Virus record (IMG/VR): IMGVR_UViG_3300045996_000852 | Coordinates: 128,001 to 165,392 of that record | DNA from: a virus | Lineage: Duplodnaviria > Heunggongvirae > Uroviricota > Caudoviricetes | DNA length: 37,392 bases | Direction: 5' to 3' (one strand) | In this document: piece after piece, positions 6,106 to 37,392 of the stretch | Numbering within the stretch: position 1 is the stretch's first letter | Layout: the number at the start of each line of letters is the position of its first letter | Translations under genes and position numbers: made by a program | Notes under the pieces: generated by a model | The model's input: the letters and a program-made list of their open reading frames with translations, nothing else | Database searches by the model: none | What the model was told of the DNA's origin: nothing

Positions 6106-6108
6106 TTG

Positions 6109-6181
6109 GGTGATATACCAGATTCGAACTGGTACGAAGACAACCACAATGTCTCATGCTGACCGTTACATTAATACCACC
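6109..6181 (-). tRNA. tRNA-His (GTG) with encoded G-1
   Basis: G-GTGGTAT...AGACA TT GTG GT TGTCT...ACCAG TTCGAAT CTGGT ATATCAC-C. Confidence 0.9.
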
Positions 6182-6188
6182 GTATTTG

Positions 6189-6264
6189 GGTCTCATAGCA
6201 GATTCGAACTACTATCAAGGGCATGATTGGAAGCCCCTATCCTAGCCATTAGACGAATGAGACC
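6189..6264 (-). tRNA. Atypical tRNA with 10-nt anticodon loop (TTCCAATCAT), G-1:C73
   Basis: Acceptor GTCTCAT/ATGAGAC, D arm GTCT..GGAT, anticodon stem GGGGC/GCCCT, T arm AGTAG TTCGAAT CTGCT. Confidence 0.75.
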
Positions 6265-6268
6265 ATAT

Positions 6269-6388
6269 AAATCTTTATATTATGAGATACCTTTTCCGTG
6301 GTCACTGGTTATCCAGTATGTGTTTTACGTTCCACACCCCTTTTCGGTGACATTGTACTCAGTTGGCTCTTATTTAATATAAAGATTT
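6269..6388 (-). ncRNA. Candidate structured RNA between tRNAs
   Basis: Perfect 14-bp closing stem aaatctttatatta (6269-6282)/taatataaagattt (6375-6388) enclosing GC-richer hairpins. Confidence 0.45.
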
Positions 6389-6389
6389 G

Positions 6390-6462
6390 GGTGCTGTAAA
6401 GGAATCGAACCTCTCTTTCAGGCAGAAAAAGCCTGTGTCCTAGCCGATAGACGAACAGCACC
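6390..6462 (-). tRNA. Atypical tRNA: Glu-like body, anticodon TTT, C37, G-1:C73
   Basis: G-GTGCTGT TC GTCT ATCGGCTA GGAC A CAGGC TTTTTCT GCCTG AAAG AGAGG TTCGATT CCTTT ACAGCAC-C. Confidence 0.8.
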
Positions 6463-32782: not shown

Positions 32783-33256
32783 ATGTTAAAATACCTCCTG
32801 AACAAAGAAACTACAGTAATAGGGAAAATAAAGAATGTATTTGCAGGATTCACTTTCTGTTTACTATGGGTAACGTTTGTGAAGCTCCTTATTAATACTT
32901 TATATGGAGTCCCTATACTTCAAATAGACCCTGCTTTTCCACCCGGGATACCTTATATATTCTTTTGGGGAGTAATAGCAGCACCCTTATGGGAAGAAGC
33001 AGCATATAGATATTTCCCAATGAAGGTTGTACAAAAATTTGGTATGGAACTTCTAATGCCAGTAATGATATTAAGTTCTATTATTTTTGGATGGGGACAT
33101 GGACTTGGATTCATCTCTATACTAATTCAAGGGGTCTGTGGATTCATAATGAATTGTGTTTATGTAAAAAATGGAATGTCCTACTGGTCCTCTGTATCCT
33201 TACATGCTATGTGGAATTTTCAAGTAGAATTTGGATTACCTTATTTTTTAAATTAG
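32783..33256 (+). CDS. CPBP (CAAX/Abi) family intramembrane glutamic endopeptidase
   Basis: Motifs WEEAAYR (EExxxR), FGWGH (FxxxH), LHAMWN (HxxxN) in a multi-TM protein. Confidence 0.9.
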   Translation: MLKYLLNKETTVIGKIKNVFAGFTFCLLWVTFVKLLINTLYGVPILQIDPAFPPGIPYIFFWGVIAAPLWEEAAYRYFPMKVVQKFGMELLMPVMILSSIIFGWGHGLGFISILIQGVCGFIMNCVYVKNGMSYWSSVSLHAMWNFQVEFGLPYFLN

Positions 33257-33262
33257 TAAAAT

Positions 33263-33385
33263 ATGACACCTGAACAAATGGAAAAAGAGATCAAGAAGCT
33301 TTCAAAGAAGGTTTGCTGTCTCACTAAAATTATTAATGATAACAATTTGACTACCTCCACAACTACCACTACAACATCGGCTTAA
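33263..33385 (+). CDS. 40-aa peptide with CC and poly-Thr tail (not in ORF track)
   Basis: MTPEQMEKEIKKLSKKVCCLTKIINDNNLTTSTTTTTTSA, 6 nt after the CPBP stop. Confidence 0.7.
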   Translation: MTPEQMEKEIKKLSKKVCCLTKIINDNNLTTSTTTTTTSA

Positions 33386-33413
33386 AAATAATTTTTAAAA
33401 AGTTGCTCAAATA

Positions 33414-33445
33414 TTTGGTGGTTTGGAATAAAAGTTGTATTATTG
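33414..33445 (+). promoter_or_regulatory. Promoter of tRNA array 1
   Basis: TTTG-N20-TATTATTG, Bacteroidota -33/-7 geometry; near-identical copy at 34558-34589. Confidence 0.7.
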
Positions 33446-33452
33446 TATTGTC

Positions 33453-33545
33453 ATGAAAAAGAATCGTCAACATACGTGGTTTACCTTTACTCAGTGTCCG
33501 TTTGGATATTGTGAGGGTTGCCCTGTATGTACGATTATGAGATAA
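33453..33545 (+). CDS. Attenuator leader peptide 1 (30 aa)
   Basis: MKKNRQHTWFTFTQCPFGYCEGCPVCTIMR; codons 5-17 use only amino acids of the downstream tRNAs; contains antiterminator strand 33510-33519. Confidence 0.85.
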   Translation: MKKNRQHTWFTFTQCPFGYCEGCPVCTIMR

Positions 33546-33570
33546 ATATTTTCAAAGTTGTATACCTCAA

Positions 33571-33603
33571 GGAATCCTCACAGAAATGTGGGGATTTTTT
33601 GTT
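33571..33603 (+). terminator. Attenuator terminator 1
   Basis: aatcctcaca-gaaa-tgtggggatt-ttttgtt, ending 4 nt before tRNA-Pro. Confidence 0.9.
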
Positions 33604-33607
33604 ATAA

Positions 33608-33681
33608 CTAGTTGTAGTTCAGCCCGGTAGAACACTTGCTTTGGGAGCAAGGGGTCGTAGGTTCGAATCCTGCCAGCTAGA
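33608..33681 (+). tRNA. tRNA-Pro (TGG)
   Basis: Cloverleaf; CTTGC TT TGG GA GCAAG. Confidence 0.95.
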
Positions 33682-33743
33682 CAAAAGTCAATGTATATGT
33701 TTACAAGTTAACTTAAAAGTAAACTTATAAGTTGACGAAATAA

Positions 33744-33814
33744 GTCTCCGTGTCCGAGTGGTTAGGAAGAGGTCTGCAAAACCTTGCACACCAGTTCGAA
33801 TCTGGTCGGGGATT
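33744..33814 (+). tRNA. tRNA-Cys (GCA)
   Basis: GAGGT CT GCA AA ACCTT; U73. Confidence 0.95.
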
Positions 33815-33883
33815 CAAAAGATTGTTCCTTTAAAAAGGAAGACGAGTGAAAGTGGATAGCGGTCTCCACCAATCTTTTTATAA

Positions 33884-33956
33884 GCCGTGGTAGCTCAACT
33901 GGTAGAGCACCTGCCTTGTAAGCAGGGGGTTGGAAGTTCGATTCTTCTCCACGGCT
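33884..33956 (+). tRNA. tRNA-Thr (TGT)
   Basis: CCTGC CT TGT AA GCAGG. Confidence 0.95.
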
Positions 33957-34055
33957 CTTGGACTATTGTAAAAGATGGTCCCGGAAGGTTGCCGAATGAA
34001 ATAACCTCTCCTTATGGGAGTATCCGAAGTGCGGATAGTGAAAAGTCGGAGCTAA

Positions 34056-34128
34056 GGTGCAGTAGCATAGCTGGTCTGTGCAGGGGACTGAAAATCCCAA
34101 GGTGTGAGTTCGACCCTCACCTGTACCA
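34056..34128 (+). tRNA. tRNA-Phe (GAA)
   Basis: GGGA CT GAA AA TCCC. Confidence 0.92.
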
Positions 34129-34136
34129 CTTAATAT

Positions 34137-34207
34137 ACGTGTGTGGTGAAATGGTATCATGACGGTCTCCAAAACCGTTGTTGGGAGTTCGAATCTCTCC
34201 ATACGTG
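34137..34207 (+). tRNA. tRNA-Trp (CCA)
   Basis: ACGGT CT CCA AA ACCGT; G73. Confidence 0.95.
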
Positions 34208-34267
34208 CTGAATGTTGCATATTTTACACATTTCCTGTATTTTTGTGTATTATATGAAACATTATAT

Positions 34268-34338
34268 TTCTCTCTGGTGTAATGGTAACATATCAGATTT
34301 TGGCTCTGATGTTCAAGGTTCGACCCCTTGGGGAGAAA
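34268..34338 (+). tRNA. tRNA-Gln (TTG)
   Basis: TCAGA TT TTG GC TCTGA; U1-A72. Confidence 0.95.
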
Positions 34339-34340
34339 CT

Positions 34341-34411
34341 GTGGCTGTAGCTTAATGGTAAAGTGGTAGTTTGTGGCACTACTGATGGGAGTTCGATTCT
34401 CCTCAGTCACC
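34341..34411 (+). tRNA. tRNA-His (GTG), T rather than G at -1
   Basis: GTAGT TT GTG GC ACTAC; C73. Confidence 0.93.
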
Positions 34412-34453
34412 CAACATGTACTAATTTATTACAAATTAGTAGATATTAGTAAG

Positions 34454-34526
34454 GCACTTTTAGTTTAACTGGATAGAATATGGGGCTACGGACCCCAAGG
34501 TACTTGTTCGAATCAGGTAAGGTGCT
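34454..34526 (+). tRNA. tRNA-Arg (ACG)
   Basis: TGGGG CT ACG GA CCCCA. Confidence 0.93.
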
Positions 34527-34557
34527 CAAAAATATTTTTAAAAAATATGAAGAAAAA

Positions 34558-34589
34558 TTTGGTAGTTTGGCATATTCTTCGTATTATTG
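34558..34589 (+). promoter_or_regulatory. Promoter of tRNA array 2
   Basis: TTTG-N20-TATTATTG, same as 33414-33445. Confidence 0.7.
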
Positions 34590-34619
34590 TATTGTAATTA
34601 AAAACAGACAAAGCAACAA

Positions 34620-34715
34620 ATGTTACATTCTTATATGATAGTGGATAATGGGATTAACCTAAGAGGTGCGGAGAAATCTGCCTCAGGGTTCCTATTGTCT
34701 GATATTATCGTATAA
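34620..34715 (+). CDS. Attenuator leader peptide 2 (31 aa)
   Basis: MLHSYMIVDNGINLRGAEKSASGFLLSDIIV; contains gcctcagggttc (34680-34691), perfectly complementary to the terminator 5' arm. Confidence 0.85.
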   Translation: MLHSYMIVDNGINLRGAEKSASGFLLSDIIV

Positions 34716-34738
34716 GATAAATATAGATCAGATTAAAA

Positions 34739-34776
34739 GAACCCTGAGGCTCCTAAGCTTCGGGGTTTTTTGTTTT
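34739..34776 (+). terminator. Attenuator terminator 2
   Basis: aaccctgaggct-ccta-agcttcggggtt-ttttgtttt, ending 2 nt before tRNA-Lys. Confidence 0.9.
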
Positions 34777-34778
34777 AT

Positions 34779-34851
34779 ACCCTCGGAGCTTATGTGGACA
34801 AGCTGCTCACTTTTAATGAGAGGATAGTAGGTTCGAATCCTATCGGGGGTA
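34779..34851 (+). tRNA. tRNA-Lys (TTT)
   Basis: CTCA CT TTT AA TGAG; G at position 8. Confidence 0.9.
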
Positions 34852-34889
34852 CATATGAAACAATTCGTGATTTGCGGATTGCGGATTAT

Positions 34890-34962
34890 GCTCCTATAGC
34901 TTAATCGGTAGAGTACCTGACTCTTAATCAGGGGGTTCTGAGTTCGAGTCTCAGTGGGAGCA
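34890..34962 (+). tRNA. tRNA-Lys (CTT)
   Basis: CCTGA CT CTT AA TCAGG. Confidence 0.95.
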
Positions 34963-35003
34963 CTTTAACATTTACTTAGTTCTTATAGTTCTTATATTTA
35001 GAT

Positions 35004-35177
35004 ATGAGAATCTATATAGGAATCAGAAAACCAAGTAAAGATAGAAAAGGAAACATTGGAACTACTTGGGAAGAACAAGTTAATGGTAGTTACATATGTA
35101 AAGAAACAAGAAAAGTGCTTAAACAATGGCAAATTGAAAATGATTTTAGATTAGGTTATTTAGAAATAGTTCCTTAA
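35004..35177 (+). CDS. Hypothetical protein (57 aa, not in ORF track) overlapping tRNA-Val
   Basis: MRIYIGIRKPSKDRKGNIGTTWEEQVNGSYICKETRKVLKQWQIENDFRLGYLEIVP. Confidence 0.55.
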   Translation: MRIYIGIRKPSKDRKGNIGTTWEEQVNGSYICKETRKVLKQWQIENDFRLGYLEIVP

Positions 35178-35240
35178 CTCAGTTGGTAGAGTGTCATCTT
35201 TACATGGTGAAAGTCGTCAGTTCGAGCCTGACAGGAACTA
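35168..35240 (+). tRNA. tRNA-Val (TAC)
   Basis: TCATC TT TAC AT GGTGA. Confidence 0.95.
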
Positions 35241-35332
35241 CAAAAGGGTGCTGTGAATAATGAAGTTAATAAACAGGACTGCCTCGTTTCTGGAATGGTC
35301 GTTGGGTAGCTGATGACATCCTTACTTCACTT

Positions 35333-35404
35333 GGTCCCATAGTTAAATGGATATAACTTCTGCCTTCTAAGCAGATATTCGTGGTTCGATTCCACGTGGG
35401 ACTA
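35333..35404 (+). tRNA. tRNA-Arg (TCT)
   Basis: TCTGC CT TCT AA GCAGA. Confidence 0.95.
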
Positions 35405-35414
35405 CAAATAATAT

Positions 35415-35488
35415 TCCCCTGAAGCTTAAGTGGTATAAGCTACTGCCTGTTAAGCAGAAGATAGTTGGTTCGAGTCCAATTGGGGGAG
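35415..35488 (+). tRNA. tRNA-Asn (GTT)
   Basis: CTGC CT GTT AA GCAG; G73; A at position 8. Confidence 0.92.
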
Positions 35489-35505
35489 CATAAAAAAAAC
35501 CAAAC

Positions 35506-35787
35506 ATGGATAATATATTTTCCAAAGGTGATAAATATGTTCACTTTAAAGAAGACGGTACTATTGTAACAGGAGAAGTTAAATCAGTAGTATTAAGTCA
35601 GGTTTCGGATTTAACTGGATTTTGTTATGAGGTGATAAATCTTGAAACACAAGATAATAAAATATTATCAATAGGTCAGACAAAAGGAAGGATTCATAAA
35701 TTAAATCATACTATGACTCCCGAAGAGAAAGATAAATTTAATAGGGGTGAATTTGTAGATAATACTCCTTGTAGAAGAGAAAATTAA
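35506..35787 (+). CDS. Hypothetical protein inside tRNA array
   Basis: 93 aa, SH3/KOW-like start FSKGDKYVHF. Confidence 0.7.
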   Translation: MDNIFSKGDKYVHFKEDGTIVTGEVKSVVLSQVSDLTGFCYEVINLETQDNKILSIGQTKGRIHKLNHTMTPEEKDKFNRGEFVDNTPCRREN

Positions 35788-35790
35788 TAT

Positions 35791-35862
35791 TGCGAGGTAG
35801 AGCAGCGGTAGCTCGGAAGGCTCATAACCTTTAGGTCGGGGGTTCGATTCCCTCCCTCGCTA
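35791..35862 (+). tRNA. Initiator-type tRNA-Met (CAT)
   Basis: T1xT72 mismatch, A11-T24 pair, GAAGG CT CAT AA CCTTT. Confidence 0.88.
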
Positions 35863-35869
35863 CAAATAT

Positions 35870-35942
35870 TGTGAGGTGCTTGTAACGGTAACTGGTCAGG
35901 CTCATATCCTGAACGATGTCGGTTCGAATCCGACTCTCGCAA
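35870..35942 (+). tRNA. tRNA with CAT anticodon (Met or Ile2), weak D stem
   Basis: TCAGG CT CAT AT CCTGA; T arm GTCGG TTCGAAT CCGAC. Confidence 0.8.
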
Positions 35943-36040
35943 CATGAGATTTTTACTGCTTATGATATTCTTTATTTCCTGTAGAAATGGAGAGTATAAA
36001 CCAAATCACATAGATGGTGTCTATGTAAAAAATAAACACA

Positions 36041-36526
36041 ATGGAAAAGTACTTCAAAACAGTGGAAGGAAAGTATGTGAATATTGTGAAGCATACTTTG
36101 GAACAACTAAATAAGTGGGATGATTTGAGAATCTATGTTGGTACAGACTCTCAAAGTGAAAGTGATTTTACAATGTATGCTACTACAATCTGTTTTAGGT
36201 ATGGTAATAGAGGTGCTCACTATATTGTATTCAAGGAAAAAGTTCCAAGAGTTCGTGTAGAATACATGAGATTATACGATGAAGGTTTAAGAACATTAGC
36301 TGCTTCTAAATTCTTGAATGATGAATTACAAATATTCCCATTCCTAGAGTTTGACTATGCTGATGTTAAGAAAACTGTTTCTTCAAACTTAGTTAGTGTA
36401 TTTAAAGGTTATCAGAATGCAAGATTCAAGTCAGAAGAAATGATTGCTACAAGAGCAGCAAATCATGAGTGTAGAAAGGAAAGTAATATGTTCAATCTTG
36501 AAGAAGCATTGAAACAAGCAGCTTAA
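36041..36526 (+). CDS. RNase H-like YkuK (DUF458) family protein
   Basis: IYVGTDSQ...YATTICF...GAHYI...RLYDE...ATRAAN motifs. Confidence 0.85.
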   Translation: MEKYFKTVEGKYVNIVKHTLEQLNKWDDLRIYVGTDSQSESDFTMYATTICFRYGNRGAHYIVFKEKVPRVRVEYMRLYDEGLRTLAASKFLNDELQIFPFLEFDYADVKKTVSSNLVSVFKGYQNARFKSEEMIATRAANHECRKESNMFNLEEALKQAA

Positions 36527-36638
36527 TACCGTATCGGGTTTTGTGGTATAAGGAGACCCTGCCTTATTGTCGAAAGACGGATAAGAAAAACCACTTTAAA
36601 TATCTCCCATAGAAGGTGCTTGCGGTGACCTTCTCTAA

Positions 36639-36710
36639 GCAGGAATGGTGTCAATGGTAACACACAAGACTTCCACTCTTGGGTTGAGAGTTCGAATCTC
36701 TTTTCCTGCT
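36639..36710 (+). tRNA. tRNA-Gly (TCC)
   Basis: CAAGA CT TCC AC TCTTG; U73. Confidence 0.95.
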
Positions 36711-36799
36711 CAGGTCAGTTTGATTGTTCTGCGTGTAGTTAAAAACAATCTTGTAGTCGGATGGTAACTCCCCAAAATGTTATCGGATGACTACTCCTT

Positions 36800-36872
36800 G
36801 CAGTAGTAGCTCAATTGGTAGAGTGCCACCTTGCCAAGGTGGAAGTTGACAGTTCGAATCTGTTCTACTGCT
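36800..36872 (+). tRNA. tRNA-Gly (GCC)
   Basis: CCACC TT GCC AA GGTGG; U73. Confidence 0.95.
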
Positions 36873-36992
36873 CAATTAACTTATGACAGTGAAACTGTCG
36901 GGGTCCGTAAGTATCTACGTAACCATCCGTAGTGAACGTCCGGGTGATGATGTCCAGACCCTTGAGGACTTATCAACCTATGTTAATTATCT

Positions 36993-37065
36993 GCCCCTAT
37001 CGTCTAGTGGTCTAGGATACACGACTTTCTATCGAGTGACACGGGTTCGAATCCCGTTGGGGGTA
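36993..37065 (+). tRNA. tRNA-Glu (TTC)
   Basis: CACGA CT TTC TA TCGAG (one stem mismatch, T37). Confidence 0.9.
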
Positions 37066-37070
37066 CATTT

Positions 37071-37142
37071 CGAGGTATGGTTGAATGGTACAATGCCGGA
37101 TTGTCAATCCGTGTGGTACGGGTTCGAATCCCGTTATCTCGG
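37071..37142 (+). tRNA. tRNA-Asp (GTC)
   Basis: CGGA TT GTC AA TCCG; G73. Confidence 0.92.
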
Positions 37143-37149
37143 CTTAATC

Positions 37150-37233
37150 GTCCTACTCCTCCTGTGGAATCTATCCACGAAGCAACTGAGGCTAGGTTGT
37201 GATACAGTAACCACTGTAGGGAGGACGTAGGAC
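37150..37233 (+). ncRNA. Candidate four-way-junction RNA
   Basis: Long closing stem gtcctac-tcctcct/gggagga-c-gtaggac with three hairpin arms. Confidence 0.55.
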
Positions 37234-37238
37234 AAAAT

Positions 37239-37311
37239 AGACTCTTAGCTCAGTTGGTAGAGCAAGATGCTCATAACATCGAGGTCACCAGTTCGAATCT
37301 GGTAGAGTCAA
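37239..37311 (+). tRNA. tRNA with CAT anticodon (Ile2 or elongator Met)
   Basis: GATG CT CAT AA CATC; A1xA72. Confidence 0.88.
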
Positions 37312-37316
37312 CACAA

Positions 37317-37390
37317 GTTGGTATAGCTCAATTGGTTAGAGCACCACGCTGATACCGTGGAGGTTGAAAGTTCGAGTCTTTCTATCAACA
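37317..37390 (+). tRNA. tRNA-Ile (GAT)
   Basis: CCACG CT GAT AC CGTGG. Confidence 0.95.
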
Positions 37391-37392
37391 CA

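Follow-up and report, generated by a model that had tools for sequence, protein, structure and literature searches.

Leader-peptide attenuators are familiar from enterobacteria, where those of trp, his and leu stand beside the multivalent ones of thr and ilvGMEDA. The pheST attenuator of E. coli extends ribosome-mediated attenuation to a synthetase, in response to one amino acid. T-box riboswitches reach a comparable decision by binding uncharged tRNA directly and need no translation. Within Bacteroidota, the Bacteroid-trp leader motif lies upstream of trp biosynthesis genes, leader-peptide attenuation having been predicted in that phylum. In mycobacteria, leaderless poly-Cys short ORFs are reported to act as Cys-responsive attenuators (bioRxiv 10.1101/834739). 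The purpose of phage tRNA genes is debated. They have been proposed to compensate for codon usage, to replace host tRNAs that are degraded, and to evade defences that cleave tRNAs (the last in PMC10264068 and PMC11464382).

Here we describe a locus in which these two themes meet. The window, 37,392 nucleotides long, forms the end of a virus record of 165,392 bp, which has 35% G+C and 127-bp direct terminal repeats. Among the proteins encoded in the record are a terminase, a portal protein and a major head protein. The terminase has its nearest named relatives, with an identity of about 26%, in Crassvirales of Bacteroides, Flavobacterium and Cellulophaga; this phage group is a distant relative of the Crassvirales. 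A plus-strand tRNA array begins at 33608 and extends across the terminal repeat, and it is divided into blocks, each headed by a short leader ORF, a hairpin and a terminator (Table 1). We consider it probable that the first of these elements, attenuator 1, is a ribosome-mediated transcription attenuator, in which stalling for lack of the block 1 tRNAs would give read-through into those same tRNA genes.

Table 1. Features of the three attenuators and their tRNA blocks; positions are those of the window unless marked as genome positions.
Feature	Position	Strand	Description	Basis
Promoter-like region, attenuator 1	33414..33445	+	Bacteroidota type; -33-like box 33414-33417, -7-like box 33438-33445	sequence read
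Leader ORF, attenuator 1	33453..33545	+	30 codons + stop	ORF call; kept in relatives
Sensor codons 5-17	33465..33503	+	13 consecutive codons, each for Pro, Cys, Thr, Phe, Trp, Gln, His or Arg, all eight included	
Segment 1	33462..33499	+	5' arm of hairpin 1:2, overlapping the sensor codons	MFE, covariation
Segment 2	33504..33536	+	3' arm of hairpin 1:2; core 33510-33519 complementary to segment 3	
Segment 3	33568..33582	+	terminator 5' arm, core 33573-33582	
Segment 4	33587..33601	+	terminator 3' arm, U-run 33595-33600	
tRNA block 1	33608..34527	+	Pro(UGG), Cys(GCA), Thr(UGU), Phe(GAA), Trp(CCA), Gln(UUG), His(GUG), Arg(ACG); first gene 7 nt past the U-run	
Attenuator 2	34559..34773	+	promoter repeat, 31-codon leader 34620-34715, segment 2 34680-34691, terminator 34736-34771	
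tRNA block 2	34779..37391	+	Lys, Lys, Val, Arg(UCU), Asn, Met, Met, Gly, Gly, Glu, Asp, Met, Ile, with interspersed ORFs	
Attenuator 3	genome 520-663, outside the window		before Leu x3, Ser x2, Tyr; leader is a run of Leu, Ser and Tyr codons	
Attenuator 3 and its tRNA block	genome 520-1473, outside the window		attenuator, then Leu x3, Ser x2 and Tyr tRNAs; array continued across the terminal repeat	

The tRNA array and its leader elements

There are 30 tRNA calls in the record, and the terminal repeat duplicates one of them. Two are minus-strand tRNAs at 6108-6461, which have no attenuator ahead of them and are preceded by a 77-codon membrane-type ORF. In block 1 the calls agree with the order that had been proposed for the genes downstream of attenuator 1, namely Pro-Cys-Thr-Phe-Trp-Gln-His-Arg, and the gap between the U-run of the attenuator and tRNA-Pro leaves no space for a promoter.

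The region upstream of the leader ORF is promoter-like, with its -33-like box 20 nt upstream of an 8-base -7-like box. The leader ATG follows 7 nt past the latter, the spacing which the first-pass annotation had reported. Fifteen bases, the -7-like box among them, occur again without change at 34581-34595, before attenuator 2. In the relatives described below, a canonical -7 box sits 4 nt before the leader ATG, and the gene for an HNH endonuclease in one of them (contig L006) has the same spacing between its own -7 box and ATG; hence, the mRNA of attenuator 1 is probably leaderless or nearly so. The leader ORFs of the relatives have 24-31 codons, with the exception of the 46 codons in L006, where a mini-ORF upstream is joined to the leader. 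Both the open frame and its ATG are kept in 11 distinct leaders.

Relatives were gathered in three ways. A protein embedded in the array led to a single related contig, L006. A terminase search gave 18 loci, 12 of which were scanned for tRNAs, the L006 contig and five contigs of up to 8.2 kb being left out; 10 of the scanned loci had tRNA matches, and the 8 with arrays were used. A metagenome scan with the conserved structural protein encoded just upstream returned 13 loci, of which 7 were examined, and added three genomes (L170, L171 and the distant L177). Roughly eleven genomes are thereby covered, and these homologues are mutually related, so that counts across them are not independent. Other anchors were less productive: an Rce1-like upstream gene gave no relatives among viral contigs; the 15-base promoter pattern had about 290 matches in viral contigs, AT-rich and mostly unrelated, which were left unused; a 16-base leader pattern occurred at 15 loci, the only related one being the L006 contig; and the nearest phage records by DNA shared tRNA-sized matches only. 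The tRNA array of Bacteroides phage DAC15 has no comparable combination of leader ORF and terminator before its first tRNA, so the system is not shared by all crAss-like phages.

Block 1 opens all ten arrays of the first set, and in all ten it comes with a homologous leader ORF, hairpin and terminator. In six genomes (L160, L161, L165, L166, L167 and L168) an HNH endonuclease gene lies between the attenuator and tRNA-Pro. In two of these, L160 and L161, a promoter-like site precedes the HNH gene and could allow the attenuator to be bypassed. L167 and L168 were scanned over only the 330 nt before tRNA-Pro, a stretch in which neither such a promoter-like site nor a leader of the attenuator 1 type (class 1) was seen.

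Alternative folds and their conservation

The terminator, antiterminator and anti-antiterminator helices of attenuator 1 had all been written out in the first-pass annotation, and every one of these pairings is present in the sequence at the positions given there. When the stretch 33453-33606 is folded without constraint, it adopts hairpin 1:2, joining segments 1 and 2, together with the terminator (33573-33582/33587-33596, extendable to 33568-33601). Part of the U-run is able to pair into the extended stem. This fold reaches -54.4 kcal/mol, as opposed to a mean of -30.5 (sd 3.8) for shuffled sequences (z -6.26; 0/200 shuffles as good). The 5' arm of hairpin 1:2 spans codons 4-16 of the leader here and codons 5-16 in most homologues. 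In folds of the growing transcript, hairpin 1:2 appears first, at -32.4 kcal/mol. A consensus terminator scan lists the attenuator 2 terminator at 34736-34771 and does not list that of attenuator 1.

Another fold becomes available when segment 1 is masked, as it would be by a stalled ribosome. With the 5' arm masked and segment 4 absent, the MFE structure pairs 33510-33519 with 33573-33582, with 10/10 bases matched and a lower helix added, at -27.6 to -28.6 kcal/mol. The best 2:3 duplex has -13.8 kcal/mol, compared with a shuffle mean of -6.1 (z -4.29; 3/500 shuffles as good). The first-pass annotation had named a terminator that still dominates with segment 1 masked as an outcome that would count against the switch. 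For as long as segment 4 has not been made, the antiterminator is the MFE structure; in the full transcript the terminator is still the MFE, at -33.8 vs -28.6 kcal/mol, a lead of 5.2, which is formally the outcome so named. The masked-fold test is a thermodynamic one and attenuators decide co-transcriptionally, so the test does not address the order of folding. As the terminator is the thermodynamic optimum in the window copy, the switch there must be kinetic. Attenuator 2 differs in this respect: its segment 2 comprises 12 bases that are the perfect complement of the terminator arm, and the MFE is still the antiterminator when the transcript is complete.

The leader stop codon may be so placed that an unstalled ribosome would prevent 2:3 and leave 3:4 free, its geometry being compatible with this. 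It lies past segment 2 and 27 nt before the core of segment 3, a geometry unlike the trp layout, and the distance from stop codon to segment 3 falls between 19 and 32 nt in 20/21 elements of the three leader classes, which correspond to attenuators 1, 2 and 3.

The same folds recur in the homologues. With segment 1 masked, segment 3 pairs with the segment 2 region in all eight distinct class 1 homologues (10/10, 9/9, 7/11, 10/13, 5/8, 6/9, 6/7 and 6/8 of its bases paired), and in 2/8 the antiterminator is the MFE of the masked full transcript. The z-scores of the 2:3 duplex are weak, at -0.5 to -1.7, in four of the eight. Across the three classes, the masked 2:3 pairing is found in 21/21 elements, a terminator in the unmasked MFE in 20/21, and a terminator by an automated criterion in 21/22. 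Segment 2 also pairs better with its own segment 3 than in mismatched combinations (p 0.06 for class 1, 0.0003 for class 2 and 0.00175 for class 3).

Covariation was assessed in two alignments. In an untuned MAFFT alignment of 8 sequences, 72.1% of the cells of the terminated state are paired, against 34-53% in slid controls, and 19 cells change on both sides, against 8.2 in shuffles (0/500 reach this value). In a CM-fitted alignment of 10 sequences, the corresponding values are 76.3% against 40-55%, and 33 cells against 12.9 +/- 3.0 (again 0/500). Taken helix by helix in the latter alignment, the terminator is 85.9% paired, and 7/15 of its pairs change on both sides. The core 2:3 helix is 70.2% paired, against 36-60% when slid (the 60% at a slide of +1), with 7/14 pairs changing on both sides and a covariation score of 0.237 vs 0.176, a value reached by 12/500 shuffles. 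Covariation is thus strong for 1:2 and 3:4, and modest to moderate for 2:3 in class 1, where support is kept at that grade because the CM-fitted alignment leans towards the structure on which it was built.

A covariance model of class 1 finds the three genomes absent from its building set, with E-values from 1e-12 to 3e-4. It also matches class 3 and class 2 elements, albeit weakly, and these classes therefore share an architecture. In all, the leader attenuator architecture put forward in the first-pass annotation is borne out: it is kept in relatives, its sensor codons match the tRNA set, and the two sister attenuators are built alike.

Sensor codons and the tRNA blocks they match

The 13-residue sensor run is the longest of its kind among the 330,780 six-frame residues of the 165-kb genome, and among the six-frame runs of at least 9 residues it alone contains all eight amino acids. 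The leader includes a cognate codon for every tRNA of block 1. The match reaches the level of codon families: the Arg codon of the sensor is CGT, in a genome where CGN makes up only 13% of the Arg codons in long ORFs, and the tRNA-Arg of block 1, with its anticodon ACG, reads CGN. The sensor Arg codon is CGT or CGC in 6/8 class 1 leaders, which are all those with an Arg there, and in class 2 leaders Arg is AGA in 7/7, matching the tRNA-Arg(UCU) of block 2.

For a comparison across relatives, we took the ten genomes with a full block and the 13 codons ending three codons past an invariant Gln-Cys. In this set 126/130 aligned sensor residues belong to the eight amino acids, against a background of 0.27, and 11/13 columns vary, with 2 to 6 different residues each. 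The pairwise differences comprise 103 that are synonymous, 300 that stay within the set and 36 that involve a non-set residue, all 36 tracing to a single genome, L164, in which 4/13 sensor residues lie outside the set. The order of the residues is shuffled between genomes and the membership of the set is kept, as expected from selection for which tRNAs are needed and unlike a functional peptide. Read in this manner, selection appears to act on the composition of the sensor and not on the peptide.

The match has its irregularities. An Arg codon is missing from three of the ten leaders, those of L164, L165 and L166 (the last two near-identical), despite the presence of tRNA-Arg(ACG). In the window's sensor, the amino acids mostly occur in 1-4 copies with no long tandem runs, and Trp, His and the sensor Arg occur once each; hence, sensitivity to any single tRNA may be low. 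An apparent absence of tRNA-Trp in L160 and L161, whose leaders have a Trp codon, was set aside: in L160 a gap of 83 nt is occupied by a divergent tRNA-like gene, which has CCA in its anticodon loop and is not called by aragorn, and the gap in L161 is of equal size. The distant relative L177 speaks for the match: it has tRNA-Cys alone after the element, and its leader has lost Phe, His, Arg and Trp and has five Cys codons.

The sister leaders are tuned to other blocks. That of attenuator 2 covers all 9 amino acids of block 2 and every tRNA in it but Lys(CUU), and that of attenuator 3 covers every isoacceptor of the Leu/Ser/Tyr block. When the three leader classes are scored against the three tRNA blocks, the leader's own block scores highest in 20/21 sensor regions; the exception is the class 1 leader of L006, where the automated choice of hairpin fell on the N-terminal extension, and the anchored window there gives 13/13. 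Enrichment in class 2 is weak (binomial p 0.002 to 0.19) because the block 2 set covers over half of ordinary protein.

These observations bear on the alternatives. One of these, which we hold to be improbable, is an attenuator that is coupled to translation and senses its general capacity (the availability of ribosomes, for example, or a shut-off of the host) instead of particular tRNAs. It would draw on the default fold in the absence of translation, which is 1:2 plus 3:4, on the weak specificity of single codons per amino acid, and on codons foreign to a leader's own block, such as the Ala, His and Phe codons in the window's class 2 leader, which have no matching tRNA in block 2. Such a sensor would have no need of a block-specific composition, of Arg codon families matched to the block or of full isoacceptor coverage.

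A second alternative, to which we give very little weight, is a small Cys-rich peptide with a job of its own, the hairpin and terminator being an ordinary gene end or a partial terminator with no ribosome sensing. The peptide is indeed conserved, with an invariant Gln-Cys and several Cys in its second half, the synonymous changes show selection on the translated product, and further conserved mini-ORFs lie near by in the relatives. The Cys codons, however, are the complements of the Thr codons of the other arm, and the wealth of Cys in the second half of the peptide is explained by the need for the 3' arm to be complementary to Thr, His and Trp codons on the 5' side. Variation in most sensor columns, and then only inside the tRNA set, is also not what would be expected of a peptide that folds or binds. 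Three unrelated-looking leaders are each matched to their own block, the ORF contains segment 2, which covaries with the arm of the terminator, and the leader peptides matched no Pfam family. A functional zinc-binding or Cys-rich peptide was dropped as the main reading on the grounds of the set-bound variation, the Cys/Thr codon complementarity and the block matching.

An equally slight chance attaches to an untranslated structured 5' RNA (a constitutive partial terminator, a processing or stability element, or a riboswitch-like binder of a protein or of uncharged tRNA), for which speak a fold that is strong and conserved in its own right, the 5' processing that tRNA precursors need, with the terminator just before tRNA-Pro, and the precedent of T-box leaders reading tRNAs directly, and against which stand the conserved open frame, ATG and stop-to-terminator spacing, the synonymous sensor differences that point to translation, an Arg codon-family match that would be meaningless, and the lack of a match to the T-box or any other relevant Rfam family, even at E up to 10. 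With respect to the T-box, neither Stem I nor a specifier nor a T-box sequence was matched: the window has no T-box hit at the gathering score, and relaxing the search of 33380-33620 to E up to 10 gave none either. The element belongs to no curated RNA family by either threshold. The Rfam leader families (the His, Trp, Leu and Thr leaders, Bacteroid-trp and others) likewise gave no match in 33380-33620, where the search at E up to 10 returned four chance-level matches to unrelated families, with E from 3.5 to 9.1.

A predicted circuit and its place among known attenuators

The reading which we favor, a ribosome-mediated attenuator tuned to its own tRNA block, would operate as follows. Transcription would start at or just before the leader ATG, and a ribosome would translate the leader while the polymerase makes segments 2 to 4. 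Should any of the eight charged tRNA species be scarce, the ribosome is predicted to pause on codons 5-17 and hold segment 1; segments 2 and 3 could then pair before segment 4 emerges, and the polymerase would read on into the genes from tRNA-Pro to tRNA-Arg. Under fast decoding, the ribosome would reach the stop codon and cover the lower antiterminator helix, hairpin 1:2 would re-form behind it, and segment 3 would be left free to form 3:4, ending transcription at about 33600. Without translation, 1:2 and 3:4 would form and transcription would end too. The circuit would be one of direct negative feedback, since its products are the tRNAs that relieve the stall. Phage tRNAs would thus be supplied on demand, for instance when host tRNAs are degraded or cut during infection. 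Attenuators 2 and 3 would follow the same logic, each tuned to its own block.

A broader proposal, to which we assign an even chance, is that phages of this clade run the whole tRNA array as three demand-driven units, each leader peptide serving as a multi-input OR gate over exactly its own tRNA species. The ribosome would then be the phage's sensor of host tRNA loss, to which immune nucleases that cleave tRNAs may contribute, and the production of replacements would be confined to the times and places at which decoding fails. From a leader that mirrors a tRNA set it follows that decoding capacity is measured by the phage and that its tRNAs are made as they are needed, and with it the debate on phage tRNAs becomes directly testable: depletion of one tRNA should switch on one block. 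The three leaders, for 3, 8 and about 10 tRNA species, would also be compact sensors of natural origin that could be reused as reporters of tRNA supply.

Full-text literature searches, with subscription journals outside their scope, returned no report of tRNA genes under leader-peptide attenuation as far as the texts covered go. If the present reading is true, these would be the first tRNA genes under ribosome-mediated attenuation, with the gene product closing the feedback loop. Classical attenuation would be extended to RNA genes whose product feeds back on the sensor, and leader-peptide attenuation would be placed in a phylum and a virus group in which such control has barely been explored.

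The Bacteroid-trp leader belongs to the likely host phylum of this phage, and the targets differ, being trp biosynthesis genes in one case and tRNAs in the other. The leaderless poly-Cys ORFs reported from mycobacteria resemble attenuator 1 in that the latter has a probably leaderless short ORF whose codon content would set an amino-acid response; they belong to another phylum, respond to a single amino acid and regulate operonic protein genes. T-box riboswitches choose between terminator and antiterminator by the state of a specific tRNA, as the present element is predicted to do, whereas the element described here has a conserved ORF that is predicted to be translated. In pheST, as is proposed here, a component of decoding is controlled via matching codons; the product in the present case is the tRNA itself, which would directly relieve the stall.

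The closest likeness is to the enterobacterial attenuators. With trp, his, leu, thr and ilvGMEDA, the locus shares a short leader ORF, regulatory codons in segment 1, the 1:2, 2:3 and 3:4 pairings and an intrinsic terminator, and with thr and ilv, the nearest of these, it shares several amino acids per leader. It departs from them in its targets, which are eight tRNAs in place of biosynthetic enzyme or synthetase genes, a difference without bearing on the mechanism; in the predicted sensing of eight amino acids, mostly by single, non-tandem codons; in an ORF that runs through segment 2 and stops 20-27 nt before segment 3; and in being phage-borne, with a probably leaderless mRNA and a Bacteroidota-type promoter. 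The proposed mechanism is that of the classical attenuators, from which the element is set apart by its tRNA target, by the breadth of eight species, by an ORF that extends across segment 2, by the type of its promoter and by its place in a phage.

Further predicted attenuators of the array

Two further attenuators are predicted in the tRNA array (see the table). The second shares the promoter repeat found at attenuator 1, and its segments 2 and 3, which would pair as the antiterminator, are perfectly complementary over 12 bp. When segment 1, the 5' arm of the leader hairpin, is masked in the full transcript, the best predicted fold is still the antiterminator. The leader of attenuator 3 carries Leu, Ser and Tyr codons in a run, and all isoacceptors of the Leu/Ser/Tyr block that follows are covered. 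This attenuator also recurs on related phage contigs (L006:13561-13684, L159:7335-7463 and others).

Predicted attenuators and protein-coding genes at and within the tRNA array (L-numbers, loci on related phage contigs; L177, a distant relative)
Feature	Position	Strand	Placement
Attenuator 2, predicted; 31-codon leader	window 34559-34773	+	ahead of Lys-to-Ile tRNA block
Attenuator 3, predicted	genome 520-663, outside window		directly past 127-bp terminal repeat; ahead of Leu/Ser/Tyr tRNAs
Rce1-like (CPBP) membrane protease gene	window 32783-33256		immediately upstream of array
RNase H-like (PF04308) gene	window 36041-36526		embedded in array
HNH endonuclease gene	L160 ~1500-2070; matching stretch of L161		inserted between attenuator-1 terminator and tRNA-Pro
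HNH endonuclease gene	L165/L166, upstream of tRNA-Pro		inserted between attenuator-1 terminator and tRNA-Pro
Gly/Cys mini-ORF	L160:1259-1306; equivalents in L161, L162, L163, L164, L170, L171, L177		close to attenuator 1

Block order and unusual tRNAs

The tRNA array (window 33608-37391 plus genome 667-1473) is sorted by block: the first, from Pro to Arg, consists almost wholly of tRNAs for pyrimidine-first codons, plus Thr, the second of those for purine-first codons, and the third of Leu, Ser and Tyr, the three tRNA types with a long variable arm. Elsewhere in the window, the spacer separating tRNA-Lys from tRNA-His on the minus strand (6181-6388) includes sequence that resembles a tRNA on visual inspection and that neither aragorn nor Rfam calls. 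Among the relatives, the 83-nt gap from tRNA-Phe to tRNA-Gln in L160 harbors a tRNA-like gene that is divergent, has an atypical T arm and carries CCA in its anticodon loop, likewise without an aragorn call; the corresponding gap in L161 is of equal size. In L162 (at ~5936, on a contig shared with L169), block 2 includes a tRNA with a CUA anticodon, labeled Pyl by aragorn, and the L162 leader has no codon matching it. This tRNA may be a sign that the phage uses amber suppression or recoding.

Protein genes and insertions

The RNase H-like gene has a homolog in L006 that likewise lies within the array. The relatives also conserve a mini-ORF of ~15-30 codons, in which Gly and Cys alternate before giving way to Lys/Pro; none was seen in the window. 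In L006 this mini-ORF is joined to the N-terminus of the attenuator 1 leader ORF, and in L159 to the C-terminus of the attenuator 2 leader ORF. The HNH genes of the relatives' arrays are preceded in L160 and L161 by a promoter-like site, and upstream of the HNH insertions there remains an incomplete copy of the tRNA's 5' half. The insertions together with the partial tRNA copy look like homing-endonuclease traffic within the array.
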